A stretch of 64,000 nt of DNA, taken from Candidatus Pacebacteria bacterium UBA6180 (lineage in GTDB: Bacteria > Patescibacteriota > Microgenomatia > UBA1400 > PJMF01). Location of the stretch: the NCBI GenBank assembly GCA_002422165.1, contig DITQ01000010.1, positions 56,595-120,594 of the forward strand, written 5' to 3'. A model generated the notes under the pieces. It made no database searches. It saw only the letters and a program-made list of their open reading frames with translations, and was not told where the DNA came from. How positions within the stretch are numbered: position 1 is the stretch's first letter; each line of letters starts with the position of its first letter. A program made the position numbers and the translations under genes. Positions 26,951-59,421 of the stretch are shown piece by piece.

Positions 26951-28723
26951 ATGTTAACTGCCCAAACCGATTCTAGCGGAGCTGTGTATATCCCCACCAA
27001 TTCTTTTGTGGATGTTTTGTATCAAAAAGGCCAATTGACTCAGGCTCAGGTTGAATTGTTGCGCCAAGAACAATTGAGTGCTTCGGAAGATTATGAATCT
27101 TTAATCAAAAATCAAAATTTACTTAGTGCAGCAATTATCAATCAAGCCAAAGCTGAATATAACCATTTGGGCTACGTTGATTTGGCGGCGGTGGGAATTG
27201 ACTCAGAGGCGCTTGGTTTGCTTGATGAAGCAATTGCTAAGCGTTACAAAGTGTTGCCTTTTGCTCTAGATAAAGAGCAGGACTCGATCAAAATCGCCAT
27301 GCTTGATCCTTTGGATTTGACGACGATTGAGTTTTTGCGCCAAAAAACAGGTCATAATGTCGAGGCTTACTATGCTGACGCTGAAGCTTTGGAAAGGCTA
27401 ATAGTTGAGCGTTATTCTCAGAATTTGTCAACCGAAGTTGATGAGGCTCTGCGCACCACCAGTCAATTTCAGAACCAAGCGGCGCGAGGCGTGGCAGTTA
27501 ATAATTCTGGTCAAATTTTGCGCGATGCACCAATCAATCGCATTGTGGAGAATATTTTGGATTTCGCCATTAGTTCGCGAGCTTCTGACGTTCACATCGA
27601 ACCACAGGGAAATAGCGTCCGAGTGCGTTATCGCATCGATGGTATTTTGGTAGAGAAATTAATTTTACCGCGCAATGTCCATGATGCAGTGATTTCAAGA
27701 ATCAAAATTATGTCCAACTTGAAGATTGACGAAAAGCGTTTGCCTCAGGATGGACGCTTCGATTATGCATCTTCTGGCAAGGAGGTTGATTTACGTATTT
27801 CTACTCTGCCAACTGTACATGGAGAGAAAATCGTAATGCGTCTACTTGAAAAGAACACGGCCGTGCCTTCGCTACAGGATTTAGGATTGCGTGGACTAGC
27901 GCTACAGCGAGTTATGGACAGCATCAAGATTCCTCACGGCATTATTTTGATCACTGGTCCTACCGGTTCTGGTAAAACTACTACTCTCTACTCCATCCTA
28001 CACATGATTAATAATGTCGGAGTCAACATCATGACTATTGAGGATCCAGTTGAATACCAGATTCCTGGAGTTAGCCAGGTGCAGGTTAACCCTAAGGCAG
28101 GTTTAACTTTTGCTTCTGGTTTGCGGTCATTTTTGCGTCAAGATCCAGACATTATTATGGTGGGAGAAATTCGTGATAACGAAACTGCTGATCTGGCTTT
28201 GCAGGCTTCACTAACTGGTCATTTGGTGTTCTCCACCCTTCACACAAATAGTGCGGCTGGAGCGTTGCCTCGTCTACTCGACATGGAGGCTGAGCCATTT
28301 CTCTTATCATCATCGATGCTCTTGACTCTTGGTCAACGGGTGGTACGACGTATCAATCCTAACTATAAAGAAGAATACAAGCCAGATGAAACTGTGATTG
28401 CCAATATCAAGAAAGTTTTGGGACCACTTTTTGAAAATTTTTGCAAAGAAAACAATAAAGATCCAAACAACATCACTCTTTTTCGTCCGATGGCCAATCG
28501 GCCGCCTACGGAACCAGAATACAAGGGTCGGGTGGCTATTTTTGAGGTGATGGCGATAACACCACAAATTTCTCAACTTATCATGAAGCGTAGTTCTGAG
28601 CCAGAATTAGAGGGCGTGGCGCTTCAGCAAGGGATGATGCTGATGAAGCAAGATGGTTATCTCAAGGCTCTTGAGGGAGTAACGACGATTGAGGAAGTAA
28701 TTAGAGTGGCTGAGGTCAAATAA
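26951..28723 (+). CDS. pilB: Type IV pilus assembly ATPase PilB (GspE family)
   Basis: Walker A GPTGSGKTTTLYS, the Asp box and a His box are present. The N-terminal GSPII-like domain fits PilB. Confidence 0.9.
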   Translation: MLTAQTDSSGAVYIPTNSFVDVLYQKGQLTQAQVELLRQEQLSASEDYESLIKNQNLLSAAIINQAKAEYNHLGYVDLAAVGIDSEALGLLDEAIAKRYKVLPFALDKEQDSIKIAMLDPLDLTTIEFLRQKTGHNVEAYYADAEALERLIVERYSQNLSTEVDEALRTTSQFQNQAARGVAVNNSGQILRDAPINRIVENILDFAISSRASDVHIEPQGNSVRVRYRIDGILVEKLILPRNVHDAVISRIKIMSNLKIDEKRLPQDGRFDYASSGKEVDLRISTLPTVHGEKIVMRLLEKNTAVPSLQDLGLRGLALQRVMDSIKIPHGIILITGPTGSGKTTTLYSILHMINNVGVNIMTIEDPVEYQIPGVSQVQVNPKAGLTFASGLRSFLRQDPDIIMVGEIRDNETADLALQASLTGHLVFSTLHTNSAAGALPRLLDMEAEPFLLSSSMLLTLGQRVVRRINPNYKEEYKPDETVIANIKKVLGPLFENFCKENNKDPNNITLFRPMANRPPTEPEYKGRVAIFEVMAITPQISQLIMKRSSEPELEGVALQQGMMLMKQDGYLKALEGVTTIEEVIRVAEVK

Positions 28724-28735
28724 AGGGGTGAACAA

Positions 28736-29791
28736 ATGCAAATACAAGACTTACTTCAATTTATAATTGATAACAAAGGTTCTGATATTCATCTAGTAGC
28801 TGGGTCACCGCTGTCAGTGCGGGTCAATGGTGTTTTGAGTTTTCCAGCTGGACCACAACCGCTCAATAAAGAGCAGGTGCAAGCTCTGATTTTTGCTATT
28901 CTCACTCCAACTCAGCGCACTGCTTTGGAAGAAAAAAAAGAAATTGACTTGGCTTATCAGTTCGCTGATCGAGGTCGTTTTAGAATCAATGTTTATCGGC
29001 AAATGGAAAGCTATGCTGCAGCACTGCGTTTGATTCCTGATACGATTCTAAGCATTGATGATCTTGGTTTACCCAAAATTTTTCACAGTTTCGCCAACTA
29101 CAATCAAGGTCTAGTGCTTTTTACTGGGCCAACTGGCGAAGGCAAATCAACTTCGTTGGCAGCTATTATCGACGAAATCAATCAGACTGAGAGCCGCCAC
29201 ATTTTAACCATTGAAGATCCAGTTGAGTTTGTCTACAAATCCGCCAAAAGCGTAATTTCGCAGCGTGAGGTGGGTAAAGACACTCATGCTTGGCAGGCGG
29301 CCTTGCGCTCGGCCTTGCGTAGTGATCCAGACGTAGTGTTGGTTGGTGAAATGCGCGATTTCGAGACAATTTCTTTGACGATGACCTTAGCAGAGACTGG
29401 TCACTTGGTTTTTGCGACCTTACACACCAACACTTCCTCGCAGACCATCGATCGCATTGTTGATGTTTTTCCATCTCACCAGCAAGCACAAGTTCGCCAA
29501 CAACTTTCAACAGTACTTAACGCAGTGGTCTCGCAGCGCCTGGTTCCTAGAATCCATGGCGGGCGTGTGGCAGCGGTAGAGATTATGCTCAACACGCCCG
29601 CCATCGCTAACTTAATCCGTGAGAAAAAAGTTTTTCAGATCGATGGTGTTATTCAGACATCTTCTGGTTCTGGGATGATGCTTTTGGAGAGTCACCTGCT
29701 GGACTTAGTTAATCAAAAAATTATTAGCAAAGAAACTGCGCTCAAGAGAGCTTTTCGACCAAACGAGCTTATTAGATTGATGGGTGACTAA
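28736..29791 (+). CDS. pilT: Twitching-motility retraction ATPase PilT
   Basis: Walker A GPTGEGKSTSLAA is present. The 351-aa length and AIANLIREKK motif fit the PilT family. Confidence 0.9.
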   Translation: MQIQDLLQFIIDNKGSDIHLVAGSPLSVRVNGVLSFPAGPQPLNKEQVQALIFAILTPTQRTALEEKKEIDLAYQFADRGRFRINVYRQMESYAAALRLIPDTILSIDDLGLPKIFHSFANYNQGLVLFTGPTGEGKSTSLAAIIDEINQTESRHILTIEDPVEFVYKSAKSVISQREVGKDTHAWQAALRSALRSDPDVVLVGEMRDFETISLTMTLAETGHLVFATLHTNTSSQTIDRIVDVFPSHQQAQVRQQLSTVLNAVVSQRLVPRIHGGRVAAVEIMLNTPAIANLIREKKVFQIDGVIQTSSGSGMMLLESHLLDLVNQKIISKETALKRAFRPNELIRLMGD

Positions 29792-29815
29792 TTTTTGAAA
29801 ACTTGATTATTAGAT

Positions 29816-31018
29816 ATGCCAATTTTTAAATACGTAGTCAAAAATAAACAGGGAGAAACTGTTAGAGGTAAGGTGGAAGCATCTTCGCATGTCCAAGCAG
29901 TTTCTACTCTGATGGGTCGAGACTTGTTTGTGATCGACGTGGTTCCTTTGGGTCAGCAGGATGGATTTTTGACTGGACTCTTGCACAACAAAGTCAAATT
30001 TGAAGATTTGGTCAATTTTACTCGTCAATTAGCGACCATGATCAATGCTGGTTTGCCTTTGGCGACGTCGCTTTCGATTTTAGAGGAGCAAGGCAAATCG
30101 GAAATGGCCAAATTAACAGGCAATTTACTCAAGGATGTTGAAGGCGGACTCAGCTTTTCTGCTTCTTTGGATAAGTATAAGGATAGTTTTTCACGAATCT
30201 ACGTGCAGCTAGTGAAAGCTGGTGAGATAGGTGGTGTTTTGGACAACGTCTTGGATCGGTTGGCTGTGACCATGGAGAAAGAAAAAGATTTTCGTGCCAA
30301 AACTAGAGGAGCGATGGTTTATCCAGTTATCATTATCTTGGCGATGGTGGCGGTTGTGATTGTGATGATGGTAGCAGTTATTCCAAAATTGACGGAGATG
30401 TATCAGGATTTCGGGGCGGACCTGCCAATGGCAACTCAAGTGCTAATGAGTGTGTCTAATTTTTTTGTCAACTCTTGGTGGTTTTTGGCTTTGTTGACGG
30501 CTGGCTTGGTTTTTGCTTTGCGCTCTTTCAAGAAAACTCCTCGTGGTGAAAAAGCAATTGATGGTCTTTTTTTGCGTATGCCAATCATCGGAGTGCTTAA
30601 GCAAAAAATTGTTTTGACTGATTTCACTCGCACTCTCTCTCTTTTGCTAGGAGCAGGTGTTTCTCTTCTCGAGGCTTTAGACATCGTGGCTTCAGCAATT
30701 AGCAGCGCAGTTTACCGAGAACAGTTACAAGAGATTAATAAACAAGTTGAAAAGGGCGTTGCTCTTTCTGACGCCATTTCTAGTTATGAAAACTTCCCCC
30801 CCATCTTGCATCAGATGGTTGCTGTGGGTGAAGAAACGGGCAAGTTGGACGAAATTTTATCTAAAATTTCTGAATATTTCGAGAAAGAAAGTGAGTACGC
30901 TATCAAGAATTTAACTACTGCCATTGAGCCAATGATTATGATTTTACTTGGCATTGGGGTCGGATTTATCGTGATTGCGATCATTATGCCAATCTACAGC
31001 TTGACTAGTCAGTTTTAA
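29816..31018 (+). CDS. pilC: Type IV pilus platform protein PilC (GspF family)
   Basis: Two GspF repeats and three TM segments are present. Length is 400 aa. Confidence 0.88.
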   Translation: MPIFKYVVKNKQGETVRGKVEASSHVQAVSTLMGRDLFVIDVVPLGQQDGFLTGLLHNKVKFEDLVNFTRQLATMINAGLPLATSLSILEEQGKSEMAKLTGNLLKDVEGGLSFSASLDKYKDSFSRIYVQLVKAGEIGGVLDNVLDRLAVTMEKEKDFRAKTRGAMVYPVIIILAMVAVVIVMMVAVIPKLTEMYQDFGADLPMATQVLMSVSNFFVNSWWFLALLTAGLVFALRSFKKTPRGEKAIDGLFLRMPIIGVLKQKIVLTDFTRTLSLLLGAGVSLLEALDIVASAISSAVYREQLQEINKQVEKGVALSDAISSYENFPPILHQMVAVGEETGKLDEILSKISEYFEKESEYAIKNLTTAIEPMIMILLGIGVGFIVIAIIMPIYSLTSQF

Positions 31019-31034
31019 TTGCGCTAAACTATTT

Positions 31035-31682
31035 GTGAATAGGAATTCTATGCAAAAAATTAAATTTTTCCAAAAAATTAAAAATCAGGCTGCTTTCACC
31101 ATGATTGAGCTTTTGATCGTGATCGCGATTCTTGGTATTTTGGCAGTGGCTGTTTTGGCAGCTATCAATCCAATTGAACAGATCAACCGCGGTCGTGACA
31201 CTGGTTCTCGGTCTGATTCTGAGCAGTTGCTCAGTGCCATTGATCGCTTCTATGCTTACAAGGGTTACTACCCATGGTTGACTAATCCCAATGACACTTC
31301 AACTTTAGCCTGGCGCGGTGTGGCCGGAGATACAACAATCACTTTTAGTGATGGAGGCTCGATTTCAGCTTGGCCTGACAACACTTCTCCAGATCCTTGT
31401 TATGTTTTGGATAAGATTGCTAATGGAGATGGCAGCACTTGTGACGGCACCAACGAGGTTAAACGTAGCTTCGTCGATAAAATAACTAAATCTGATTACA
31501 ACCATCTCTATGTTTATTACAATGGTGACCCAGGGAGCAGTCTCTATGTCTGTTTCAAGCCACAGTCAGGAGCCATGAAGGAAGAAGCTTCGAGTCGCTG
31601 TAGTGCTGGATTGCCAGAAGATCTGCAGGGTGCAGTTAGCGAAATTTGTACTTCAGGCGCAGAATACATCTGTCTCCCATAA
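31035..31682 (+). CDS. Type IV pilin (prepilin N-methylation motif; candidate major pilin)
   Basis: A class III signal QAAF|TMIELLIVIAILGILA is present. Residue -1 is Ala rather than Gly. Length is 215 aa with a Cys pair near the C-terminus. Confidence 0.8.
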   Translation: MNRNSMQKIKFFQKIKNQAAFTMIELLIVIAILGILAVAVLAAINPIEQINRGRDTGSRSDSEQLLSAIDRFYAYKGYYPWLTNPNDTSTLAWRGVAGDTTITFSDGGSISAWPDNTSPDPCYVLDKIANGDGSTCDGTNEVKRSFVDKITKSDYNHLYVYYNGDPGSSLYVCFKPQSGAMKEEASSRCSAGLPEDLQGAVSEICTSGAEYICLP

Positions 31683-31688
31683 ATTCTG

Positions 31689-32489
31689 ATGCTATTTTTT
31701 GAATTAGCTTTGGTTTTTATTTGCTCCTACTTTTTGGCGATCCTAGCTAGCTTTTTTAATGTGGTTATTTTTCGTACAGCCAGAGAAGAGTCTTTTGTTG
31801 GGGGTCGTTCTAAATGTGAGCACTGTGGGAAGCAAATCAGTTGGCGAGACAATCTACCCATCTACTCTTTTATTATGCTTGCTGGTAGGTGTCGAAGCTG
31901 TCACAGTCAAATATCTAGGAGACATTTCATCAGCGAATTATTAGCTTTTGTTAGCGGCTGGTTTTTCTATTTTGGTTTATTGCATGCACAAGCTTTACAG
32001 GGTTTACCAATAGGGCAGCTGATTGTCTATTTTTTATGCTTTTTTGTGTTGGCTTTCATAGTTTGGGCAGATCTACAGTATTTTTTGGTTCCAGATTTTC
32101 TAGTAATTTTGCTGACAATTTTTACGGTGATTTTGCTCTTTTTGACTGAGAGTGCTTGGCAAACTGCGTTGTTAGCAGTAATTTTCTCTTGTGCTGTTTT
32201 TGCCATGATTTACTTGGTGGCGCGCAAATTTTTAGCCAAAGAAGCCCTGGGCTTAGGTGATTTGAAATTGATGGTCCCCTTGTCTTTGCTGCTTTCTTGG
32301 CCGCTAATTCTTGTCAATATTTTTTTAGCGTTCATTTTAGGTGGGATTTTTGCTATGATTGCTTTAGTTACAGGTCGTAAAAAATTTGGCCAAGCGTTGC
32401 CTTTTGCTCCTTTCCTTGTTTTGGCAGCGTTGATTAGCTTGTTTTATGGTAAGTTTTTGATCGACTGGTATTTAGGTTTTTTGTTATAA
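31689..32489 (+). CDS. pilD: Prepilin peptidase PilD (A24 family)
   Basis: The N-terminal zinc-binding CEHCGKQ...CRSC motif and polytopic membrane topology fit PilD. Confidence 0.8.
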   Translation: MLFFELALVFICSYFLAILASFFNVVIFRTAREESFVGGRSKCEHCGKQISWRDNLPIYSFIMLAGRCRSCHSQISRRHFISELLAFVSGWFFYFGLLHAQALQGLPIGQLIVYFLCFFVLAFIVWADLQYFLVPDFLVILLTIFTVILLFLTESAWQTALLAVIFSCAVFAMIYLVARKFLAKEALGLGDLKLMVPLSLLLSWPLILVNIFLAFILGGIFAMIALVTGRKKFGQALPFAPFLVLAALISLFYGKFLIDWYLGFLL

Positions 32490-32499
32490 AAATAAATTT

Positions 32500-33501
32500 A
32501 TGCGTATCATAAAGTTTTTTTTAGCAGCTCTCTTAGGCACGATTATTATTGGAGGATTGGTTATATTGGTTCTTCGCGAAGTAGTTTTGGTGGCGGGCGC
32601 ATCTTCCTTATCTGGAGACTATAAGAGCTTGCTAAATAAAAACTATAGCCAAGAGTGTATGCGCCAGCACGGTTATGTCCAAGATTATTTCACGCAAATT
32701 CGTTTCACTTCCAACAGAGAATATAAGACCGAGGTTGTCTGTGCTGATTTTACCTCCACGCCAATTGTTTTAGAAAGTAAAAAATTGCCGATATTGTTAT
32801 TCAAAACCTCAATTGGTTCTGGCTTTGTGATTGATGAGCGAAAGTTGCCTTCGACAATTAAATTGAGTTCTCTAGGTCGGAAGATTTTTGTCTATACAGA
32901 GAATGGTCAAATGCACAGCAACTACCTGCGACCAGCAGATTTAGATTATGAGCTGGGGCCAGTTAGTGTCTGTCAGGCCCACGATTACCAGTGTTGCGAT
33001 CTGGATGTTCAGAGTGGCGAAGGAGAACAACTAACCAGAGTTAACGATTGCCCAAAGAGTTGCTATACCAGCTGTTTGTTGAGGCCAGTAGTGTTGTCTT
33101 TCAATACTCGCCCCGCGCTTGATACAGAAACGCGCATTGTCGAAGTGCGCGCAAATGAATTGGTCACTTTTTCTTACGTAGTTGGTGATGGTAAAACTGA
33201 TGTTTTTGCTGGTCAAATTGCCAAAAATGAAGAGTTAAATTTACTAGAAAAAATGCAAGCTTTAATCGCAGGTCCCAAATCAAGTAAAGCTGGCGGTTTA
33301 TCTTTACCAGTTACAGTGACAATAGACTTTGGTGATGGAGAGATTTGGCAAAGCAATAAGTTACAAGACACCATTGATCATCAATACGCTTGTACTAGTC
33401 AAACTTGCGTTTTTCAGGTCAAATTAAGTGCAAGTGACAGCCGTGGAGTCTTGTCAGTTGGTAATGAATTGACTAGAATGATTATTAAGGTGGACAGGTA
33501 A
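32500..33501 (+). CDS. Cys-rich, membrane-anchored hypothetical protein inside the pilus operon
   Basis: An N-terminal TM helix is followed by about 12 Cys (VCQAHDYQCCDLDV, NDCPKSCYTSC). No homology I recognise. Confidence 0.45.
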   Translation: MRIIKFFLAALLGTIIIGGLVILVLREVVLVAGASSLSGDYKSLLNKNYSQECMRQHGYVQDYFTQIRFTSNREYKTEVVCADFTSTPIVLESKKLPILLFKTSIGSGFVIDERKLPSTIKLSSLGRKIFVYTENGQMHSNYLRPADLDYELGPVSVCQAHDYQCCDLDVQSGEGEQLTRVNDCPKSCYTSCLLRPVVLSFNTRPALDTETRIVEVRANELVTFSYVVGDGKTDVFAGQIAKNEELNLLEKMQALIAGPKSSKAGGLSLPVTVTIDFGDGEIWQSNKLQDTIDHQYACTSQTCVFQVKLSASDSRGVLSVGNELTRMIIKVDR

Positions 33502-33515
33502 CAGAATTCAAGATC

Positions 33516-33935
33516 ATGAAAAAAAACAAACAAAAAGGTTTTACTCTTCTAGAAATCCTTGTGGTTATTTCGATTATTGGCATTTTGGTGGCACTGGGAA
33601 CAGCGGCTTTTTCGACCACTCAGAAGAAAAGTCGCGATGCACGACGTAAATCTGACCTTAAGGCTGTCCAGAACGGTTTAGAACAATATCACGCCAAAGT
33701 TGGCTCCTACCCGACATCATCTGAAGAGGCAAATGACGAGACAATTTTCCCAGCTGGTCTGCCTGAAGACCCTAGAAATATTAGTCCAAATACCTACACA
33801 ATCAACTTTAATAGTGATTCTTTCTGCGTCTGTGCCCTTTTGGAAAATAGTGCGGGCAATGCTGCCAACCTGCCTTCTGGTTCTGCTTGTGAGTACGGCA
33901 GTGGCAACTATTATTGTCTGGGGAATCTGCAATGA
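33516..33935 (+). CDS. Minor pilin / pseudopilin
   Basis: KQKG|FTLLEILVVISIIGILVALG is a canonical prepilin cleavage/methylation motif. Confidence 0.8.
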   Translation: MKKNKQKGFTLLEILVVISIIGILVALGTAAFSTTQKKSRDARRKSDLKAVQNGLEQYHAKVGSYPTSSEEANDETIFPAGLPEDPRNISPNTYTINFNSDSFCVCALLENSAGNAANLPSGSACEYGSGNYYCLGNLQ

Positions 33936-34336
33936 ACAAAAAAAATCGTGGCTTCACGATGATTGAATTATTGGTGGTGGCGACGGTGATTATTTTATTA
34001 ACAGCGATAGGCTTAGTTTCCTTTAGTCAGACAGTGCGTAGTAGCCGCAATGCCAAGCGCAAAGCCGATTTGGAGACTGTTAGACAAGCCCTAGTGCTAT
34101 ACAAACAAGACCACACTTATTATTCTGACAATACTAGTTTGAACTTTGATAGCTTAGTTGGCGAACTACATGCGGCAGAATACCTAACAGAATCAACCAT
34201 AGTGGATCCTAAGAACACGATTCCTTACACCTATCAAGCGATTTGCTCGACAGTCAGTGGCCCGAATTGCATCAAGGTGACTTTGCGAGCGGTGCTAGAG
34301 CCAGATGAGCAAACCTATGACCTTATCGCTCTCTAA
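33932..34336 (+). CDS. Minor pilin / pseudopilin
   Basis: KNRG|FTMIELLVVATVIILL is a prepilin motif. ATGA overlaps the upstream stop. Confidence 0.8.
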   Translation: MNKKNRGFTMIELLVVATVIILLTAIGLVSFSQTVRSSRNAKRKADLETVRQALVLYKQDHTYYSDNTSLNFDSLVGELHAAEYLTESTIVDPKNTIPYTYQAICSTVSGPNCIKVTLRAVLEPDEQTYDLIAL

Positions 34337-34844
34337 GAGACAATCCAATGCAGCTTTCACTCTAATTGAGATGACAATCGCTGTTTCTGTGATGGTTATT
34401 TCCTTGTTAATTGGTTTAGCCAACTATTTACGTTTTCTAGACAAACAGCGTCTTTATCAGGCAGGGGCAAATGTAGAGATAATGCTTAAGGATGGTCGTT
34501 CCAAAGCGCAAAATGGATATTTAGGTAGTGAGGAGTTGGGTTATTGCACACAACTGGCGGGAGTAGAGATTAGTTCTGCGACCGATGTTAGCGGTCGAAT
34601 TTCAATTATTGGGCGCTTGAGTTGTGCTGACGATAGCTCTTTGATTTATGAAAGCTTCACTCTTGAGCAAGCGGAAGTTGCTATCGACCAGCACTTTCAG
34701 ATTATATTTTTACCTTCTCGGGGAGCTCGTTTGACCCTTGGTGGAGCTACGACCAGTAGTGGCGCTGCTGTGCTTAGTCAGCGTGATAGTGCAGTTATTT
34801 TTAATTTAGATCAGGGAGGAACGATTGATGTCAGTTATCAGTAG
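34305..34844 (+). CDS. Minor pilin / pseudopilin
   Basis: SNAA|FTLIEMTIAVSVMVISLL is a prepilin-like motif with Ala at -1. Confidence 0.65.
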   Translation: MSKPMTLSLSKRQSNAAFTLIEMTIAVSVMVISLLIGLANYLRFLDKQRLYQAGANVEIMLKDGRSKAQNGYLGSEELGYCTQLAGVEISSATDVSGRISIIGRLSCADDSSLIYESFTLEQAEVAIDQHFQIIFLPSRGARLTLGGATTSSGAAVLSQRDSAVIFNLDQGGTIDVSYQ

Positions 34845-35325
34845 AGCAGCTGTGGGAGAACCCATCGCTCACCGCGCGCAGCGCGGTTCTACTCTAGTAG
34901 AAATTTTAGTGGCGGTGACCATCATCTCTCTGGTGTTGACGGCGGTTTCAGCAATGATTTCCATGTCTGTTAAGCTAGCGGAAAGTAACGAAAAAAAACA
35001 ACTAGCATTGCAAAAAGCTGAAGAAGCAATGGAGTTTTTTCGCAAAGAACGAGTGATTTCTAGTTGGTATAGTTTTTCTACTCCTCTGACTGATGGGGCA
35101 ACTTATTGTGTAAGTAGTTTGCCAGAAGATGTTGCTAGTTTGTCAGCGAAGTTAGGTGGTTGTAGCAATAGCGACACGATGGAAGCTGCGCGATATAGCT
35201 TCCAGCGTCAGGCAGTTGTCAATTTTAACAGCGTCAATCGACTTAATATACAGATAGAGATGCTCTGGAATGATGGCTCTAAGGCAAAGAACTTAGTTTT
35301 AGAGCAGAGCTTTGAGAATTATTAG
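34825..35325 (+). CDS. Minor pilin / pseudopilin (PilV/FimT-like)
   Basis: AQRG|STLVEILVAVTIISLVL is a prepilin motif. Confidence 0.65.
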   Translation: MMSVISRAAVGEPIAHRAQRGSTLVEILVAVTIISLVLTAVSAMISMSVKLAESNEKKQLALQKAEEAMEFFRKERVISSWYSFSTPLTDGATYCVSSLPEDVASLSAKLGGCSNSDTMEAARYSFQRQAVVNFNSVNRLNIQIEMLWNDGSKAKNLVLEQSFENY

Positions 35326-35874
35326 TTAATTTCTTGTTACCACGCCACTACCAAAATCCAGACTACTCGTTCTTGGGTTGTTCTCTATTTCGTCAGAACC
35401 AACTTTTAAATTAAAGTTGACTTCAATGTATTTTTTTCCCTCTTCTGTCGGGTAACAAGTAAAGAGTAAGTTTTGAACATAATCTGTACTTAGACTGCTG
35501 CCTTCAGTCAAGTAATATTTGCCATTTGCAGATATAGAGGCGATGCGATCATCTTCTTCACGGATAATAGTTTCCAAATCATCGCTGCCGATAATAGATA
35601 TGTAGTCAAGTTGAGTTTCACTCTCGCAGGGTGAAGTGATTTCGTTTGCGTTGCGCAGCATGTCAATGATCTGACGAGTAGCGTTGCCACCGGACTCACG
35701 CAAGTTTTGACTGATACGGCTTTTGTATGCGGTGGCCAGGAAAGTGATAAAAAGGCTGCTGATGGCTAAAAGTAGCAAAGCTGTGACGCCAGTGGTGATA
35801 AGCAGCTCAAGTAAAGTAAAGGCGCGCTGAGAGATGGTGGAAAATAAAGTGGTTTTCGAAGCAGATCGAGACAT
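35326..35874 (-). CDS. Pseudopilin-like protein
   Basis: SQRA|FTLLELLITTGVTALLLLAISS is a prepilin-like motif with Ala at -1. It is the first gene of a divergent minus-strand block. Confidence 0.6.
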   Translation of the reverse strand: MSRSASKTTLFSTISQRAFTLLELLITTGVTALLLLAISSLFITFLATAYKSRISQNLRESGGNATRQIIDMLRNANEITSPCESETQLDYISIIGSDDLETIIREEDDRIASISANGKYYLTEGSSLSTDYVQNLLFTCYPTEEGKKYIEVNFNLKVGSDEIENNPRTSSLDFGSGVVTRN

Positions 35875-35935: not shown

Positions 35936-37732
35936 CTACTGTGTGATTAACCGTGGATTGATTTCGCGCCAATTGCTAGTACTAGCCTTGAGTTTGACTG
36001 GCCAGTTGAATAGTAGATCGGAACGATAGATGAAATTTTCGATCGCTTGGTTGTTATTGAGAATGGGGCCAAGATTTCCATCATCAAATGTACGGTTGAG
36101 AGTGACGCCGCCCCAGCCAACGAAGGTGCCAGCCCCGATGAACTTGCGATCAGGAGGAACTTCGCCGATGTCGGTTTTGCTTTGCAGGATTAGGCTATCA
36201 TTGGCGATGAAAACACCTTCTAAATTGCTGTTCGCTATAGCAACCACAGGCACTGTAGGCGTATTAGGATCGAGCTCATAGCCGATATTTGGTGTAATCC
36301 AGATGTCACCGCTAGCGATGAAGGCCAGGAAGCCTCCGTTGGCAACGCTTGTGATTTTGCGATTAGTGTCTCCAGGATTGCTGTCATCGAAGGTCAAGCG
36401 GCCGTCGACAAAGACGACCAGCTGTTGGCCACTAGACAGAAAGAAACCTTGGCTTTCATCAATGCTGACATTGCCATTGATTTTGACATAGTTAACCTCA
36501 TCAGGTTGCCACCAGGGGGCAGAAGTAAAGTCACTGAGTAGAGGTTCCAGGTCTTCACCATTACCTATAGTGATAGCACTGTTTTCAGCTAGTCGGTAGA
36601 AATAGTCATAGGAAAGCGGTGCCAAATCAGTACGTAGAGCATAGGCATTACGGTTTTCAGGTCGAGATGTCAAATGAAGGTAAGAGTGATAGGCGCTACT
36701 GACGTTGCTGGTTTGAACGCGGCTTGGATCACTACTCGTGATAATCGTAAAGCCGCTGCTGAGAGGATTACTGCTGTTGCTGGGCAAGTTTAGGGCTGGT
36801 TGGCAGCCAGGATCGCCAGCACAAAAACTTTCGGGGATGGTGCTGGCGACTAAGTTGCTGGCAAAGAGATTGCCGCCGAAAACTTGAAACCAAGAAGTAT
36901 TGGAGAGACTGTATTCTCTTAGGTAAAAATTGACTCCTGCTAGTGGTGGATAAACGCCTGAGTAGCGACAGAGATAGGGGTCAGTGACACTGATTGGCGC
37001 AGGACAGGAACAAACGTAATTGGTTCCAACCTGATTGGTAAGATCTAGAGTAACGGTGTAACCAGTGCCCGTCATGACATTGGAGATGCTGTAGTTACTA
37101 GGATTAGCGAAGCTAAAGGTGGCATCCTGGGTGGTTTGGCTCGGGGCCGACGCACGCAGGGTAATGTTTGATAAGTTATTGATCGGGGAAGCGCTGGCCT
37201 GGGTGCAATAAGCGCCACTGAGGGCAGCAGAAAGGTCGGTTTGAATTGAGCCCTGTATGAGACTGACAGTTGGGGTAGGTGTAGGTGTAGGTGTGCCTGT
37301 CGGGGGAGGTGTGCCTGTCGGGGGAGGTGTGCTACCACCACTTCCATCATCTTGCGGAGGCTCACAGTTACAGAGGACGTCGGCTTCCTCGTATATGCAG
37401 TTGCCACCAACCTCCGAGCAGTCACTGCATCGAACTTCATTACAACAAACTCCAGAGACAGGGTAAAAATTATTTGGATCGCTTGGGTCAGTGCAAGCAC
37501 CGCTGTCAAAGCACTCATAAGTTGCACATTGAGCCGGAGCTGGAGGTGGATTACTTGGGCAATTCGCATCACTTGAATAATTTAAGGTATGGGAATAAAT
37601 AACCGTTTGGGTACCGCAGTAGCCGCTACATTCACCCCAGACGGTGTCGTTGCATGCTGCTAAAGCTTGATTATTTGTAGTTAATAAAATTAGAAATAAT
37701 ACGGTAGTAATTATGGTTGATTTTAATCGCAT
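35936..37732 (-). CDS. Large secreted protein: signal peptide, ~100-aa Cys-rich module, Pro/Thr linker, ~430-aa C-terminal domain (candidate pilus-associated adhesin)
   Basis: Signal peptide is MRLKSTIITTVLFLILLTTNNQALA. At least 16 Cys occur in the first 110 mature residues. The PPPTGTPPPTGTPTPTPTPT linker is encoded by tandem nucleotide repeats at 37257-37340. Confidence 0.6.
   Translation of the reverse strand: MRLKSTIITTVLFLILLTTNNQALAACNDTVWGECSGYCGTQTVIYSHTLNYSSDANCPSNPPPAPAQCATYECFDSGACTDPSDPNNFYPVSGVCCNEVRCSDCSEVGGNCIYEEADVLCNCEPPQDDGSGGSTPPPTGTPPPTGTPTPTPTPTVSLIQGSIQTDLSAALSGAYCTQASASPINNLSNITLRASAPSQTTQDATFSFANPSNYSISNVMTGTGYTVTLDLTNQVGTNYVCSCPAPISVTDPYLCRYSGVYPPLAGVNFYLREYSLSNTSWFQVFGGNLFASNLVASTIPESFCAGDPGCQPALNLPSNSSNPLSSGFTIITSSDPSRVQTSNVSSAYHSYLHLTSRPENRNAYALRTDLAPLSYDYFYRLAENSAITIGNGEDLEPLLSDFTSAPWWQPDEVNYVKINGNVSIDESQGFFLSSGQQLVVFVDGRLTFDDSNPGDTNRKITSVANGGFLAFIASGDIWITPNIGYELDPNTPTVPVVAIANSNLEGVFIANDSLILQSKTDIGEVPPDRKFIGAGTFVGWGGVTLNRTFDDGNLGPILNNNQAIENFIYRSDLLFNWPVKLKASTSNWREINPRLITQ
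37257..37340. repeat. Coding tandem repeats (6-bp ggtgta x3 and 21-bp cctgtcgggggaggtgtg-containing unit x2) encoding the PT linker
   Basis: gtaggtgtaggtgtaggtgtgcctgtcgggggaggtgtgcctgtcgggggaggtgtgct is visible directly in the sequence. Confidence 0.8.
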
Positions 37733-38307
37733 AGATCAGTAACAATAATTTTCTTCACATAGTTGGTTCTAGCTTGATCAAAATCTTCAGTGAGCTGGAC
37801 TAAGAGAAAATTTAGTTGATTGCTTTTTTCGACGAAGTCAGTGAAACTAATGATTTTTTCTCCAGGAACAAACAAGGTTGCTCCATCCTTGACTGGAATT
37901 CGCAGGTTCTTCAGAGAATAACTTTTGCCAGTGTTGAGATCGGTATATGTTTCTGGCACACAGTAAACGCTTTGGCTAGGAGATAACTTTAGATCAACAG
38001 GTTCAAACAAACTACTCTGGGTAAAAGCGATAGCAGCCCTAATATTTAAGGTTTGTGAAGTCTCATCGTAGAAGTTGAAATAACCCTTCATTAAGGAATG
38101 GTTATTTAAGCCATCAGTGTTGTTAGATTTGATAACTTTAGAGGGGTTGATGCCTTTAGAATCAAGCGCAGTTTTTTCCCACTGACCAGTGAATTGGTTA
38201 TAGAAATCGCCTTCTATTTTATTACTTTGCTTGTTTTGGTAAAGGTAGTAATAAATGGCAAAAAAAGCCAAGGAAACGAGTAGTAAAACCAACCATGTTT
38301 TTTTCAC
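37723..38307 (-). CDS. N-terminally anchored hypothetical protein
   Basis: An N-terminal TM helix is MKKTWLVLLLVSLAFFAIYYYL. Length is 194 aa, with an 8-nt overlap with the upstream gene. Confidence 0.45.
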   Translation of the reverse strand: MKKTWLVLLLVSLAFFAIYYYLYQNKQSNKIEGDFYNQFTGQWEKTALDSKGINPSKVIKSNNTDGLNNHSLMKGYFNFYDETSQTLNIRAAIAFTQSSLFEPVDLKLSPSQSVYCVPETYTDLNTGKSYSLKNLRIPVKDGATLFVPGEKIISFTDFVEKSNQLNFLLVQLTEDFDQARTNYVKKIIVTDLCD

Positions 38308-38351: not shown

Positions 38352-39974
38352 TTAGTTACCGGCTTCTAATACTAGCACTTTTGCTTCTAAAAGGGGTAAT
38401 TTATTGTTAACTTGGTTTCCAGTAATGACATTGTGAGTTTGACTTGATGGAGCTAGCCCCTCATAGTCAGTGGTTGGTTCTTTTCCGTCTGATTTGGGGT
38501 AGGATTGAGCAAATTCTGCTTTTTGATCCACTTCGTACATTACGTAGTACAATCTATTTATTTTGAGTGCTTTATAAAAATCGCTGATTTCCCTGATTTT
38601 TCCAAGGTTGGCAGCTTTGAAGTTGTCTCCATACAGATTAGGGGCTCCAGTTATCAATACTGTTGTAACTGAAAAGGGATCGCTTTCATTGATTACAAAT
38701 CCCATCAAGGTGCCAGCTACGCCAAAACCAGGAATATTTATTTCTCCAATCTCTTTTCCCAAAAAGAAAGTTGGAACCATGTTAACTTGTTTTCCGTATG
38801 CTTTATGTAAATATTCAGGATTAGTCAAGCCTTGAAGATTTGGGTCTGTTACCCACTGAGGATCAACTTTCTCTCCGGCCGGCCAAGGGAAATTGTCAAA
38901 ATTACCGAACATAATATTTTGCGAGCCTTCAATTCTAATCCACGATCCTTTATAGAAAACATGGGTGTACCCCTCGTTATCAACTACTCTTGGAAGAGTA
39001 TTGTCGATGGTTCGTTGTTCGGCGGAAGTGCCGTCGCTGACCGGCTTAAAATCTAGGGTAACAGGGTCGATATAAAATTTGTCACCATTTCTATCTGTAA
39101 AAATAATTGGGTTAGAACCTCTTCTCGCGTCCTTTTCTTTGTCCAGGGCAATGCTAAAGGTCTTGCGTTGTTCAAAGCTAAGAGAGCTGACATCAACGCT
39201 GCCTCCCTCCATAGCTTCATCTACCAATTTTTGGATTATTTCTGCTTCGCTTAGCACAACCACTTCAACTGTTGGAGAGGGTGGCTGAGTGGGAGCCTCC
39301 GCGGTCACAATCGGATCTTCCTGTGGTGGTGGCGGAGTCAAGCTGGGGTCAACTTCTCCTGGGAAGTTAGGAGCGCTTGCTTGGTTGGGATCAACATCAG
39401 CTTTGGGGGCAGAAAGTCCGCAGGCTAATTGCATCGCACCCAGAATTACAATTAAAGTTAAGCCTGCGTAAACGCCTTTAGGCATTGCGTAGAGTACTCT
39501 GTCAAATAATTCGGCAAAAGATGTAAATGGTTTTTTAAGTTCTTCCAGTAAATAACGTCGCATCAGAGCAGCTAATTCTGCCTCATTTTTTGGTGTGGAT
39601 TTTGATTCAACGGCAATGTTTTTGGCTTGTCGTTTGAGTTCTGCTACACGACTTCTAATTTGTTGCCAATTAGCTTGTAATGCTGCAGCAACTTCTATTG
39701 GCAAGTTCTTCTCGCTGATATCGAGAATTTGTTCATTTAATAAATAATTAAGTTGAAGAGCACGGGCGGTATCAATGGTTTGTTCTAAACCTTTTAGCTG
39801 TCTTTTCTTGGTTTTTCTAGCAAAAGCTTTTTTTCCAGACTCAAGAACTGAAGCTACTGTGGCCTGCTGAGGACTAAAGGGTTCGTGTTTATCTCTGTCG
39901 CCGCGAAGTTGTGAGCGAAAATTAATTTCTGCTCGCCTTTTCGAATCACTATTATGTAGTTCTTTTCTCCCCAT
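38352..39974 (-). CDS. Bitopic membrane protein with Pro-rich spacer and large extracytoplasmic domain (hypothetical)
   Basis: A ~190-aa cytoplasmic coiled-coil-like N-terminus is followed by a TM helix GLTLIVILGAMQLAC. A PPPPQEDPIVTAEAPTQPPSPT linker and a ~300-aa domain follow. Confidence 0.5.
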   Translation of the reverse strand: MGRKELHNSDSKRRAEINFRSQLRGDRDKHEPFSPQQATVASVLESGKKAFARKTKKRQLKGLEQTIDTARALQLNYLLNEQILDISEKNLPIEVAAALQANWQQIRSRVAELKRQAKNIAVESKSTPKNEAELAALMRRYLLEELKKPFTSFAELFDRVLYAMPKGVYAGLTLIVILGAMQLACGLSAPKADVDPNQASAPNFPGEVDPSLTPPPPQEDPIVTAEAPTQPPSPTVEVVVLSEAEIIQKLVDEAMEGGSVDVSSLSFEQRKTFSIALDKEKDARRGSNPIIFTDRNGDKFYIDPVTLDFKPVSDGTSAEQRTIDNTLPRVVDNEGYTHVFYKGSWIRIEGSQNIMFGNFDNFPWPAGEKVDPQWVTDPNLQGLTNPEYLHKAYGKQVNMVPTFFLGKEIGEINIPGFGVAGTLMGFVINESDPFSVTTVLITGAPNLYGDNFKAANLGKIREISDFYKALKINRLYYVMYEVDQKAEFAQSYPKSDGKEPTTDYEGLAPSSQTHNVITGNQVNNKLPLLEAKVLVLEAGN

Positions 39975-45022: not shown

Positions 45023-46030
45023 CTAGAGCTGTCTAGTGATTAGGCCCATGCAAACGCTATAGCTAGCTTGATTGAGTTCTGGAACTTGGCCTTTGGCTTT
45101 GGCGAAAGGAGCTGCTATCAACACTTCCACTCCCAAATTTTGACTGATTTTTTCGACCAAACCCTTTAGTTGAGCTGGCCCACCAGCTAAAGCAATGCGC
45201 TTAATTTTTTGTTCAGGGTGATTTTGGTTAAAAAAGCGCATCGTTTTTTGCAAATCAATGATTAGGTTGTTAATAATTGGGTCAATGACTTGGTATAGCT
45301 TGCCTTCCATTTGATTGGGATCGAGACCATAGTTAATTTTGTATTCTTCTGCCTGTTTAAGGTCGAGATTGAAACTTTGGCTAATAGCAGCGTCAATTAG
45401 TGAGCTGCCAGTTTTAGAATTAAAAACGAACTCGAACATATTATTGGCAACCACAGCGATGTCGTTGCTACTGGAGCCCATTTGGACAATGATGGTCTCA
45501 GGATCATTGGCTTCTATATCTAGCGAGCGAATGACAGAAAAAATTTGGGTTTCAAGAAGGGTTGCTTCGATGCCAATGTTGAGAAAAACATTATTGATTT
45601 TTTCAACCAGGGATTTACGCGATCCAACTAGCAAAACTTTCATTGTTGCATTAACTGCTTTTTTATTGGGTTTTTCTAGAACTTGATACTGCAAGATAAG
45701 GTCATTTTTGGGGATGGGGATGGACTGTTCAGCTTGCCAGCCAATCGCTGAAGCCAGCTCAGCATCACTAAGGACAGGCACATCAATCACTTTACTAGTG
45801 ACTAGATATTCAGGCAAACTAAGTCTGACGTCGCTTTGATCGAGCTTGTAGTCGTGGAAAAGGTTGCTAATTAGCTCAGCGAACTGCAGTGCTTCTTGGT
45901 CGCTTTTGGGAGCGACTAATCCTAATTTATTTTTGATTTCTACAGCTTTATTAATCGCTTGACTTCTGCTGTCTTTAGCAACAACGATCTTAATCGTGTG
46001 GGTGCCGATGTCTAGGGCAGTTATTGACAT
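45023..46030 (-). CDS. pilM: Type IV pilus assembly protein PilM (actin-like ATPase fold)
   Basis: The N-terminal ITALDIGTHTIKIVV matches the PilM/FtsA-like phosphate-1 motif. Length is 335 aa. Confidence 0.7.
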   Translation of the reverse strand: MSITALDIGTHTIKIVVAKDSRSQAINKAVEIKNKLGLVAPKSDQEALQFAELISNLFHDYKLDQSDVRLSLPEYLVTSKVIDVPVLSDAELASAIGWQAEQSIPIPKNDLILQYQVLEKPNKKAVNATMKVLLVGSRKSLVEKINNVFLNIGIEATLLETQIFSVIRSLDIEANDPETIIVQMGSSSNDIAVVANNMFEFVFNSKTGSSLIDAAISQSFNLDLKQAEEYKINYGLDPNQMEGKLYQVIDPIINNLIIDLQKTMRFFNQNHPEQKIKRIALAGGPAQLKGLVEKISQNLGVEVLIAAPFAKAKGQVPELNQASYSVCMGLITRQL

Positions 46031-53035: not shown

Positions 53036-54274
53036 CTAAATTAGCAAATAAAACAATGCTGTCAAGCCCAAGCCTGAAAACTGGGTTAGCAGATAGTGAT
53101 CCAGGCTGGCGATGGCCAGAAGTATAAGGGTTTTTTGGTAAAAGCGCTCAATCTTGACTTGTCTGATTAGGAAAAACAAAATTATTAACAACAGTAAACC
53201 TCCCTCACTTAAGATTAAAAATAGCAAATTGTGAACTGGTTGAACGAAGCGCACGATTTCCTGATTGATGGCAGCGCCAGCGTATTTTTCGACTTGAATA
53301 GTGAAATTATTGATGCCCACTCCAAAAAGTGGGTTAGCTTCAAACATAGCGAAGGCAGCCTGGTTGAGGGCGTTGCGGCGGTTAACCGAATTTGTGTCTA
53401 GTTTGCCGTATACGCTTCCACTTAGTAGGTAGGGCAAGAAAAGCAGAAAAAAATAATAAGTGATAAACAAAATAGCTTTTTTGGCCTTGATGCGATCGAG
53501 CAACAAATAGAGCCCAAATAAGCCAAGGGTAAGCAAGGCTGAGAAAGACTGGGTCAGGAAAATAATTAGCAAAGCGTTCGCCAGCAAGAGGACTTGCGCT
53601 TTAATGGAGCCTTTGCTCTTGTTGATGAGTAAAATCGACAAAATAGTGATCAGTCCAGCCAAAACATTGGGATGAGCGAGAGTACCATAGGGCAAAATGC
53701 GTTCGCCGAAGGCAAATTGCGCCCGACTGATGTTGGCCAGATCGCGCAGATTAGTCTCGCCCAGGAATTGGTAAGCCAAAAGCGACTGCTGAAAGACGAA
53801 TTGATAAACCGCCAAGAGACTCTGAAAAATGACCACTGCCAAGAGCGAACTGAGGATAAACTTCTCTGCCCTCTTGGTTTTGAAAAGTGGGTTGGATCTA
53901 ACCACGCTAAAAAATAAGAAAACTTCCAGCAAATGGATCAAGTGGGTAAAAGCAGCCAAGGCAGAAGTGCTGAAAAGCTGCCGCAGCAGTAGCAGTATGA
54001 CCAATAGGCAAAAAAAAGTGTTGAGCTTGATCTTTTTGAGCTGGTGCAAGTTCAGAAGTAGAAAAGGAAGCAGAAAAATTTCCGCTAGGTAGAATTTGGG
54101 AATTAGATAATCTATTAGTAAGCCGTGGACGTAGGCGCCATCGAGCGAGATCTTGTAAAACAAATTGAGACTAAAAGTAAAAATGATGAAAAAAAGCAAA
54201 AACAAGTGCAATAAGTCAAGATTGCTTTGAACAAAAGATTTAAATTTCCCCCACCAGTTTAGCTTTGAATTCAT
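53036..54274 (-). CDS. O-antigen-ligase-family-like polytopic membrane protein
   Basis: About 10-12 TM helices surround a central loop. Length is 412 aa. This is a weak, topology-based call. Confidence 0.35.
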   Translation of the reverse strand: MNSKLNWWGKFKSFVQSNLDLLHLFLLFFIIFTFSLNLFYKISLDGAYVHGLLIDYLIPKFYLAEIFLLPFLLLNLHQLKKIKLNTFFCLLVILLLLRQLFSTSALAAFTHLIHLLEVFLFFSVVRSNPLFKTKRAEKFILSSLLAVVIFQSLLAVYQFVFQQSLLAYQFLGETNLRDLANISRAQFAFGERILPYGTLAHPNVLAGLITILSILLINKSKGSIKAQVLLLANALLIIFLTQSFSALLTLGLFGLYLLLDRIKAKKAILFITYYFFLLFLPYLLSGSVYGKLDTNSVNRRNALNQAAFAMFEANPLFGVGINNFTIQVEKYAGAAINQEIVRFVQPVHNLLFLILSEGGLLLLIILFFLIRQVKIERFYQKTLILLAIASLDHYLLTQFSGLGLTALFYLLI

Positions 54275-59386: not shown

Positions 59387-59421
59387 CGATTTTTCAAACC
59401 AGTAATATAAAAAATAATAAA

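Follow-up and report, generated by a model that had tools for sequence, protein, structure and literature searches.

Within the 64,000-nt stretch of Candidatus Pacebacteria bacterium UBA6180 DNA analyzed here (the window), an open reading frame on the minus strand (35936..37732) encodes a protein of 598 aa, hereafter called the target. It is convergent with a block of type IV pilus genes on the plus strand (26951..35325), ordered PilB, PilT, PilC, pilin215, PilD, p333, pilin139, pilin140, pilin179 and pilin166. Downstream of the target, and on the same strand, lies pilin182 (35326..35874), encoding a minor pilin with the prepilin motif ..RA/FTLLE and a GspJ/XcpW/EpsJ-like fold; structural modeling suggests that it is GspJ/XcpW-like, and J-like rather than K-like. 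The pilus-locus context proposed in the initial annotation is confirmed: the region 26951-35874 contains PilB, PilT, PilC and PilD as well as six genes with prepilin motifs, and PilM lies at 45023-46030. Glu5 is present in every prepilin read (pilin215 is outside this set). A PilK/GspK-like acceptor pilin was not identified in the locus, and comparison of the pilin182 and p333 profiles with PDB sequences returned only matches to the N-terminal helix or noise. The Rfam search of the window returned only three tRNAs.

Upstream of the target, on the same strand, are p194 (37723..38307), encoding a 194-aa protein with an N-terminal membrane anchor and no Pfam family match, and p540 (38352..39974), encoding a variable protein of 540 aa with an internal hydrophobic segment, which is the first gene of the putative operon. 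The ATG start of the target overlaps the stop of p194 by 10 nt; this overlap (ATGCGAwTAA) is conserved, and by this arrangement p194 and the target are predicted to be translationally coupled. A promoter-like site upstream of p540 (40098-40069) is a consensus match only; the promoter and terminator scan showed no excess over chance.

The same organization recurs in related genomes. The gene order of the type IV pilus block is the same in L002-L014, and in the related loci the target group is convergent on pilins, PilD and PilC. A pilin182 homolog directly follows the target in 12 of 12 related loci, and 10 of these 12 close loci have p194 directly before it; L002 and L009, the two exceptions, contain no sequence upstream of the target. 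A p194 homolog was not detected in L010. Conservation of p540 is weak (L003, L005, L011, and L012), and large genes occupy its position in L017-L019. L017 is a locus of this kind as well, and its target relative has 30% identity. In L018 and L019, which are remote loci, the target relative and its two upstream neighbors, among them a gene of p194-like size and architecture, lie away from pilin genes. The series p194, target and GspJ-like minor pilin is a conserved sub-operon inside a complete pilus locus.

The public annotation of the contig splits the target ORF. Full-length orthologs (about 50, with 571-609 aa) and a start context that is kept in 10 of 12 loci show the 598-aa reading to be correct. 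An overlapping out-of-frame ORF (37072-37572), a gene in the public record, was rejected as an artefact, as it is not open in the orthologs (40-169 aa).

The protein consists of a signal peptide, an N-terminal module with 14 Cys, a Pro/Thr/Gly linker and a C-terminal part of 441 aa, in this order. The signal peptide (aa 1-26, 37655..37732, minus strand), read directly from the sequence as MRLKSTIITTVLFLILLTTNNQALA followed by AC, comprises MRLK, a hydrophobic core and QALA/AC, with residues 2-19 forming a helix in the structure model, and is most likely of the Sec/SPase I type. Its end, LAAC, fits the lipobox [LVI][ASTVI][GAS]C and the Cys is kept in 47 of 49 orthologs, but the residues that precede it in these orthologs are mostly off-lipobox (ATDC, KADC, FAEC, EATC, and others); with only part of the orthologs fitting the lipobox, we did not adopt a lipoprotein reading. 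A prepilin motif was not found, nor did the sequence examined contain a C-terminal transmembrane segment, a sortase motif or another known anchoring signal. With its signal peptide and a total of 20 Cys, the target is a secreted, Cys-rich protein, as had been proposed.

Fourteen of the Cys lie in the variable N-terminal module (aa 27-125, 37358..37654, minus strand), which is modeled as a β-hairpin (pLDDT 57-81); the remaining six, located C-terminally, are conserved in 48-49 of the 49 orthologs. The linker (aa 126-157, 37262..37357, minus strand) is predicted to be disordered, with pLDDT < 50 for residues 126-154, which agrees with the earlier view of the Pro/Thr stretch as a spacer separating folded modules. 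It is followed on the same strand by a CnaB/SdrD-like β-sandwich domain (aa 158-297, 36842..37261) with the conserved residues Cys176, Cys241, Cys243, and Cys255, and by a connecting region of low confidence (aa 298-369, 36626..36841; pLDDT < 50 at residues 299-327 and 342-366) with the conserved Cys304 and Cys310. In the C-terminal half, a triangular β-solenoid with a flanking helix (aa 370-560, 36053..36625, minus strand) is modeled with an ice-binding-protein (DUF3494)/ComZ-like fold, the fold class of the ice-binding proteins and the Thermus tip pilin ComZ, the former scoring above ComZ. A C-terminal tail (aa 561-598, 35939..36052, minus strand; ..FIYRxDLLxNWPxKLKASxSNWREvdPqLIxQ) completes the protein. 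The model contains neither a pilin domain nor a hydrophobic alpha-1 helix.

With Foldseek, no PDB structure matched at E < 1e-3. Nothing usable was obtained with Pfam and NCBIfam for the target, with Pfam for the 49 orthologs (E ≤ 1), or with the family profile against PDB sequences (E ≤ 10); an NCBIfam S-layer match (E 0.033, 11.5 bits versus a cut-off of 1400) was discarded as low-complexity noise. As there is no Pfam model and the gene is mis-called in public records, the target family is currently invisible in genome surveys.

We scored the mean pairwise identity of the target and its orthologs over seven protein regions. Identity is lowest in the signal peptide (28%) and second-lowest in the N-terminal Cys-rich module (31%), and reaches 50% in the connecting region, 68% in the solenoid and its highest value, 80%, in the C-terminal tail. 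The tail includes an invariant Pro, its final 16 residues (583-598) have pLDDT < 50, and 43 of 49 orthologs share the same terminal residue position; throughout the superfamily, the motif YRPD..N.P..K....W[RQ]E is found at the extreme C-terminus. The initial annotation placed the C-terminal domain at the distal end, with the spacer setting its reach. The conservation is the opposite of what this arrangement implies, with a conserved C-terminus and a variable Cys-rich N-terminus, and points to the C-terminus as the end that would face the machinery and to the Cys-rich N-terminus as a variable head.

At the DNA level, the linker contains two exact tandem repeats on the minus strand. Tandem Repeats Finder identified a period of 18 bp (37289..37332, 2.4 copies, 100% match), a duplication that encodes TPPPTG TPPPTG TP, and a period of 6 bp (ACACCT, 37275..37294, 3.3 copies, 100% match) that encodes TPTPTPT. 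Both arrays together are 60 nt, encoding TPPPTG-TPPPTG-TPTPTPTPT, and the repeat tract within 37250-37350 is flanked by GGAAGTGGTGGTAGC and ACTGTCAGTCTCATA. Of the three copies of ggtgta and the duplicated 21-bp unit described initially, the tandem repeats are real, but the duplicated unit is 18 bp (six codons), as the accompanying translation PPPTGT x2 implies. We then resampled the codons synonymously, keeping the encoded peptide and drawing on the codon usage of the target gene itself (20,000 draws). None of the 20,000 draws contained the exact run of 26 nt at offset 18, and the 18-bp duplication therefore reflects a recent event at the DNA level, beyond the effect of a repetitive peptide; the 6-bp run was reached in 2.1% of the draws. 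In the linker, 7 of 9 Thr residues are encoded by ACA, versus 7 of 45 in the rest of the gene.

All 49 orthologs contain a linker of 22-55 aa (median 32 aa, sd 6; P + T fraction of the linker 0.57), and 4 of 13 orthologs have their own, differing linker DNA duplications. The linker thus evolves by local duplication, which is generally the way in which Pro/Thr linkers evolve. Independent duplications of 27, 24, and 21 bp are present in L003, L006, and L014, respectively, and none in the others; in 9 of 13 orthologs the linker has no DNA repeat scoring > 50, and no Tandem Repeats Finder array above this score occurs elsewhere in these genes. The earlier proposal that the linker can expand or contract by slippage holds in part: it does change by local tandem duplication, as seen in comparisons between species. 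In the nearest relative (L016, 64% identity overall) the linker is unrelated to that of the target, and a sequence closer than ~64% identity was not found in the collections searched. A pattern of the two flanks separated by a variable gap N{42,72} had 0 matches in metagenome contigs, related-locus scans of genome and metagenome collections yielded nothing closer than about 60% identity, and a search for closer contigs through the more conserved neighboring pilin returned only 56-71% identical orthologs. The pilin-found contigs that cover the linker region (L016 and L032) have unrelated linkers.

Known contingency loci need many more units for high mutation rates, and the arrays of the target (18 bp x 2.4 and 6 bp x 3.3) do not form the long homogeneous repeat tract that characterizes such loci. 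On/off switching is impossible, since all repeat units are multiples of three. A device for phase or length variation, as envisaged initially, is thus unsupported, as is programmed length variation of the linker. That the repeats are a slippage-prone device altering spacer length within populations, thereby tuning the reach of an adhesin, is in our view very improbable: the repeats are exact, in frame and recent, ortholog linkers differ in length and other lineages have separate duplications, which favors such a device, but the copy numbers are low, most orthologs have no linker repeat above the score threshold, the length range is modest, and ± 6 residues add little reach to a disordered tether of ~30 aa. 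The 18-bp and 6-bp repeats would rather be the trace that replication slippage or duplication has recently left in a low-complexity linker with loose length constraints, and are a by-product of linker evolution rather than a switching device. The Pro/Thr linkers of modular secreted proteins (cellulase CBM linkers; PF04886) are likewise low-complexity, disordered and located between folded modules, and both they and the target linker vary in length and sequence among orthologs and are built by short DNA duplications. There is no essential difference, and this is the ordinary category for the repeats; one ortholog weakly matches the PF04886 PT repeat (E 0.0057). By themselves the repeats carry little weight, being a normal mark of an evolving Pro/Thr linker. 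The target protein, unannotated and widespread in ultrasmall CPR/Patescibacteria, matters more than its repeats.

Host recognition and attachment by CPR bacteria are largely unknown, with type IV pili as the main candidates (PMC11623550). An adhesin or partner-binding role, as in the candidate host- or partner-binding adhesin of the initial annotation, is the best reading of the target. With moderate confidence, we propose that it is a non-pilin, candidate pilus-tip adhesin on a flexible tether. The target would be a Sec-exported accessory protein of the Patescibacteria (CPR) type IV pilus, whose conserved solenoid and terminal tail may dock on the minor-pilin priming complex. The tail could act as a docking peptide, and may donate a β-strand to a minor pilin in the way that PilC/PilY1 does to PilK. 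The protein would then be transported outward at the pilus tip, where the hypervariable, disulfide-rich N-terminal head, carried by the flexible Pro/Thr tether of ~30 residues, may bind the surface of a partner cell or another ligand. The conserved order of p194, target and pilin182 and the 10-nt overlap speak for this proposal. Points against it are that no PilK/GspK-like acceptor pilin was identified in the locus and that the prepilins read all have Glu5, that the target relatives of L018 and L019 lie away from pilin genes, and that the tail, as a putative β-strand, contains an invariant Pro.

Several features of this proposal are shared with PilC/PilY1, whose hallmarks are a signal for SPase I, variation at the N-terminus, conservation at the C-terminus and a terminal tail that lacks order when modeled by itself (bioRxiv 10.64898/2026.09.18.752573). 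Both proteins are non-pilins that have an ordinary signal peptide and whose genes lie next to those of minor pilins (for the target, the GspJ-like pilin in 12/12 loci); both combine a variable N-terminus with a conserved C-terminus (for the target, 31% versus 68-80% mean pairwise identity), and in both the short terminal tail is highly conserved and disordered in the monomer model. J-class pilins cradle the terminal strand of PilC/PilY1 (PMC13533445). However, PilC/PilY1 has a C-terminal β-propeller (PF05567/IPR008707), in place of which the target has the β-sandwich and β-solenoid, and the two are related neither in sequence nor by Pfam. PilC/PilY1 belongs to the type IVa pili of diderms, whereas the target is from a CPR bacterium; monoderm T4aP are thought to lack PilC/PilY1 and to use modular pilins instead (bioRxiv 10.64898/2026.09.18.752573).

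The solenoid provides a second parallel. [quoted passage not shown] Cyanobacterial PilX, one of the PilX/HpsA-type pilins, contains a solenoid of the same kind and is proposed to serve as a tip plug instead of PilY1 (bioRxiv 10.64898/2026.02.12.705559). A triangular β-solenoid of the ice-binding-protein fold class is common to these proteins and the target. In ComZ and PilX, both of them pilins, the pilin fold carries the solenoid as an insertion in cis. The target, in contrast, lacks a pilin fold, has a cleavable signal peptide of the Sec type, and additionally possesses the Cys-rich head, the Pro/Thr tether and the β-sandwich. With DUF3494 ice-binding proteins (IBP-1 fold) the target has the fold alone in common, with no PF11999 match, and neither its multidomain architecture nor its location in a pilus locus would lead one to expect ice binding. 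PilX1 and PilX2 of the Saccharibacteria (Nanosynbacter lyticus TM7x) are proposed host-binding tip adhesins (PMC11623550), and are, like the target, large CPR pilus-locus proteins with accessory domains and without a predicted PilD-type signal. They are described as pilin-like lollipops with a β-jelly-type or β-propeller C-terminal domain, whereas the target has a solenoid and no pilin fold; homology between them and the target was not detected.

Other functions were weighed against the same evidence. The target could be a surface adhesin or attachment protein off the pilus, Sec-exported and attached by its conserved C-terminal module to wall, S-layer or membrane, possibly by way of p194 with its membrane anchor, while the head points outward on the Pro/Thr tether; co-regulation with the pilus would then arise since both serve attachment. 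The anchor of p194 and its predicted coupling to the target fit this arrangement, as does the persistence in L018 and L019, away from pilins, of the triad of a large membrane protein, an anchored protein of ~190 aa and the target, and CnaB/SdrD-like sandwiches are typical stalk domains in wall-anchored adhesins. We nevertheless consider it unlikely, given that the target has no known anchoring signal, is encoded directly beside a J-class minor pilin without exception in the 12 close loci and has a solenoid like that of the tip pilin ComZ. This last likeness could also indicate a DNA receptor of a competence or DNA-scavenging pilus, in which the solenoid catches extracellular DNA rather than a host surface. 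This is improbable, as ice-binding proteins outscore ComZ, the DNA-binding lysines of ComZ could not be mapped on the target, no com genes were found among the window ORFs scanned, and a hypervariable, tethered Cys-rich head is hard to square with DNA as a generic ligand. Least plausible, and in our judgment extremely so, is a secreted enzyme or toxin whose β-helix degrades the polysaccharide or wall of a host cell: the C-terminal half is rich in invariant Asp, Glu, and Arg, and β-solenoids are common among glycan lyases and hydrolases, as the ComZ authors note (PMC6561018), but structurally the target is matched best by ComZ and by ice-binding proteins, which are non-enzymatic, rather than by helices of the pectate-lyase type, and there is no enzymatic match in Pfam or NCBIfam.

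A pilus-tip role for the target would combine PilY1-like logic with a ComZ-like solenoid in a non-pilin of CPR pilus loci, a new module for tip presentation. More tentatively, and with doubt prevailing, the CPR/Patescibacteria may have taken a "third way," in which a Sec-secreted non-pilin provides in trans the solenoid and terminal strand (in cis in ComZ and cyanobacterial PilX) and docks in a PilC/PilY1-like manner with a different fold, the hypervariable, disulfide-knotted head on its Pro/Thr tether setting the host specificity of the episymbiont. If this is true, the family, with > 1000 clusters at 50% identity, would constitute a major and as yet unannotated repertoire for host recognition in CPR bacteria, and the variable heads would offer a concrete set for tests of host specificity. 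The superfamily comprises 1037 clusters at 50% identity, and the conserved module lies at the C-terminus of the members inspected, preceded by N-terminal parts that vary in length and content. Pfam found almost no N-terminal domains in seven long members (one Big_2, one weak CBM_4_9, and one DUF7305), and prepilin motifs were limited to chance matches in 2 of 167 members. Among these 167, the N-terminal part is Cys-rich in 119, has Pro/Thr segments in 98 and a hydrophobic N-terminus in 141.

The gene at 35936–37732 on the minus strand encodes a protein of 598 aa. Its N-terminus reads as a signal peptide (MRLK, a hydrophobic core and QALA|AC) and is followed by a module with 14 Cys in residues 27–125 and a linker spanning residues 126–157 (PQDDGSGGSTPPPTGTPPPTGTPTPTPTPTVS), in agreement with the secreted, Cys-rich protein described in the initial annotation. 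Six Cys are present in the C-terminal 441 aa, each kept in 48–49 of 49 orthologs. In the public record of the source contig, the gene is split into an out-of-frame ORF of 165 aa that overlies the Cys-rich and linker region (37072–37572, minus strand) and a product of 379 aa that begins at Met220 (35936–37075, minus strand). Sequence comparison shows that the 598-aa reading is the correct one and the public gene call is wrong, because approximately 50 orthologs (571–609 aa) can be aligned with the protein from Met1, the start context ATGCGAwTAA is recurrent in 10 of 12 loci, and orthologs do not maintain the other reading frame. Considered as a gene in its own right, the 165-aa frame was rejected, as it is open for only 40–169 aa in orthologs and is not conserved. 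The ATG lies within the final codons of p194, the gene upstream (ATGCGATTAA, 37723–37732), and the resulting 10-nt overlap at the p194 stop, conserved in 10 of the 12 related loci, implies that the two genes would be translationally coupled. Due to such public mis-calls, the N-terminal halves of this family are under-represented in protein databases. A similar mis-call was observed at a second contig, L016.

The gene is located in a pilus locus, as had been proposed. On the plus strand, pilB (26951–28723) is followed by genes for PilT, PilC, a 215-aa pilin and PilD, by p333 (32500–33501), encoding a conserved Cys-rich membrane protein of 333 aa, and by four prepilin-motif genes, the last of which ends at 35325; PilM is encoded at 45023–46030. 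Convergent on this block are the minus-strand genes p540 (38352–39974), p194 (37723–38307), the 598-aa gene and pilin182 (35326–35874), encoding a GspJ-like minor pilin. The G+C content of the window is 44.8%. In each of the 12 related loci whose sequence is long enough, a pilin182 ortholog directly follows the gene; a p194 ortholog precedes it in 10 of these, and the convergent pilin/PilD/PilC block is also present. A relative of approximately 30% identity (P0061, contig L017) is found in a similar pilus locus, and two other distant relatives retain both upstream genes but have no adjacent pilins. A HEPN/nucleotidyltransferase pair lies beside the homolog in L017 (10845–11524), and two genes matching Pfam T4SS_pilin lie upstream of the homolog in L019 (2026–4928).

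An AlphaFold2 model based on an alignment of 49 sequences (mean pLDDT 71.8, pTM 0.52) agrees with a spacer between two structured parts. After a signal helix, an N-terminal module rich in β-hairpins (pLDDT 57–81) is separated by a disordered linker (residues 126–154, pLDDT <50) from a β-sandwich (158–297, pLDDT about 80), a poorly modelled region (299–366), a confident helix-plus-β-solenoid (370–560, pLDDT about 90) and a low-confidence tail (583–598). A Foldseek search with the model returned no significant match, and sequence profiles of the close family gave no matches in PDB and Pfam. Distant homologs match Pfam DUF7305 (P0066: 30.3 bits, cut-off 27), in a region taken to be the equivalent of the solenoid.

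Mean pairwise identity is 28% for the signal peptide, 31% for the Cys-rich head, 42% for the linker, 55% for the β-sandwich, 50% for the connecting region, 68% for the solenoid and 80% for the last 38 residues, with an identical end residue in 43 of 49 orthologs. Searched against 1.84 billion representatives, the family profile retrieved 1037 clusters at E ≤ 1e-3 and 219 at E ≤ 1e-30; among the matches listed, the conserved module is C-terminal in nearly all full-length proteins (about 500–1600 aa). Of 167 full-length members, 141 have a hydrophobic N-terminus, 119 an N-terminal part with >5% Cys and 98 at least one Pro/Thr-rich segment; a prepilin-like pattern occurs in only two, which we read as chance. 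The motif YRPD..N.P..[LM]K....W[RQ]E is found across the superfamily, a few residues at most from the C-terminus. The family is unannotated, large and CPR-specific.

Reading the protein as an adhesin on a spacer within a pilus locus is reasonable, and its features match the logic of PilC/PilY1: an ordinary signal peptide without a pilin fold, a gene embedded among core minor pilins, a variable N-terminus with a conserved C-terminus, and a conserved terminal tail modelled as disordered in the monomer. The last ~10–12 residues of PilC/PilY1 add a β-strand to PilK (PMC13533445; bioRxiv 10.64898/2026.09.18.752573, both 2026) and are cradled by PilJ (PMC13533445), and in models of PilC by itself this tail is disordered (bioRxiv 10.64898/2026.09.18.752573). 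In contrast to the β-propeller of PilC/PilY1, the conserved domain here is of the ComZ/PilX solenoid class. ComZ, the solenoid of which has an ice-binding protein as closest structural relative, binds a neighbouring pilin and was proposed to cap the pilus (PMC6561018); a solenoid of this kind is present in all cyanobacterial PilX proteins, proposed to plug the tip in the place of PilY1 (2026 preprint, bioRxiv 10.64898/2026.02.12.705559). Based on this combination, we propose by analogy that the protein is a candidate non-pilin pilus-tip protein, in which the solenoid and tail would dock onto the minor-pilin complex and a flexible Pro/Thr tether would present the hypervariable, disulfide-rich head. 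As in ComZ, the solenoid precedes the terminal segment, which suggests that the protein may form a trans counterpart of the cis arrangement of ComZ. Alternatively, the protein could be an adhesin held by the cell wall or S-layer, a DNA receptor or an enzyme. As a pilus-tip protein, it may represent a new variant of tip presentation.

No PilK-like acceptor pilin was identified. The p333 protein, which might be the missing GspK/PilK-like subunit, is conserved at 51–62% identity, lacks a prepilin motif, has a transmembrane helix at its N-terminus and gave no Pfam match or PDB sequence match; in each related locus reaching that far, its gene is flanked by pilD and the pilin genes. In pilin182, the residue preceding the prepilin cleavage site (position -1) is Ala in place of Gly in 11 of 13 orthologs (..QKA|FTLLE), and the C-terminus carries a strongly conserved LDFxSGxxTRN motif.

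At the DNA level, Tandem Repeats Finder (TRF) identified a 6-bp unit (x3.3, 37275–37294) and an 18-bp unit (x2.4, 37289–37332) in the linker, both 100% identical. Both repeats described in the initial annotation are thus present, but the duplicated unit of 21 bp is a miscount, since PPPTGT is encoded by 18 bp. When synonymous codons were redrawn at the frequencies found in this gene, without altering the peptide, none of 20,000 resamplings attained the 26-nt exact run seen at offset 18, and 2.1% attained the 6-bp run. The Thr codon ACA accounts for 7 of 9 Thr codons in the linker versus 7 of 45 in the rest of the gene. The repeat is therefore a real, recent DNA duplication. Over the 21 kb compared around the gene (from 25936 onward), the window and its source contig (k141_1531375, ENA ERZ27315062, 161,661 bp) have the same sequence. 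The contig name suggests an assembly k of 141, and as the repeat tract is 60 nt, assembly collapse is unlikely.

A P/T/G/D-rich segment between the last Cys of the N-terminal module and the invariant Gly161 is present in all 49 aligned orthologs, with a length of 22–55 aa (median 32, sd 6); the N- and C-terminal parts vary comparably (sd about 5). Between species, the length of the spacer does vary. Tandem arrays with a TRF score >50 were detected in the linker of 4 of 13 orthologs, each with different units: 18 bp in the window, 27 bp x2.4 in L003, 24 bp x2 in L006, and 21 bp x2.4 plus 6 bp x7.5 in L014. Outside the linker, the 13 genes contain no arrays above this score. Among relatives for which the N-terminal region is available, the nearest is L016 (64% identity overall), and its linker is unrelated; searches of the protein database, JGI metagenomes and the genome collection yielded no strain closer than about 64% identity. 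The differing duplications and the unrelated L016 linker argue that the linker evolves repeatedly by local duplication, probably on a species-level time scale. Programmed variation of its length by slippage, the alternative put forward initially, is unsupported: judged by what is generally known of contingency loci, the repeats do not resemble one, having few copies and units all divisible by three. We regard them as ordinary linker evolution.

Thr-rich linkers such as this one are plausible as putative O-glycosylation sites. A Wzy_C/O-antigen-ligase family protein (PF04932), a family that also includes pilin O-oligosaccharyltransferases, is encoded at 53036–54274 (minus strand). Elsewhere in the window, TRF reported a 27-bp repeat (x2.0, 81% match) at 11925–11978. 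An exact 35-bp tandem duplication (GGTCCGAAATTCGCGTTGCATCTTTCGTACCAAAA, x1.9) is located at 59186–59252 (plus strand), approximately 60 nt upstream of tRNA-Val(GAC) (59313–59387), with a further partial copy of the unit (GGTCCGAAAT) nearer to the tRNA gene.
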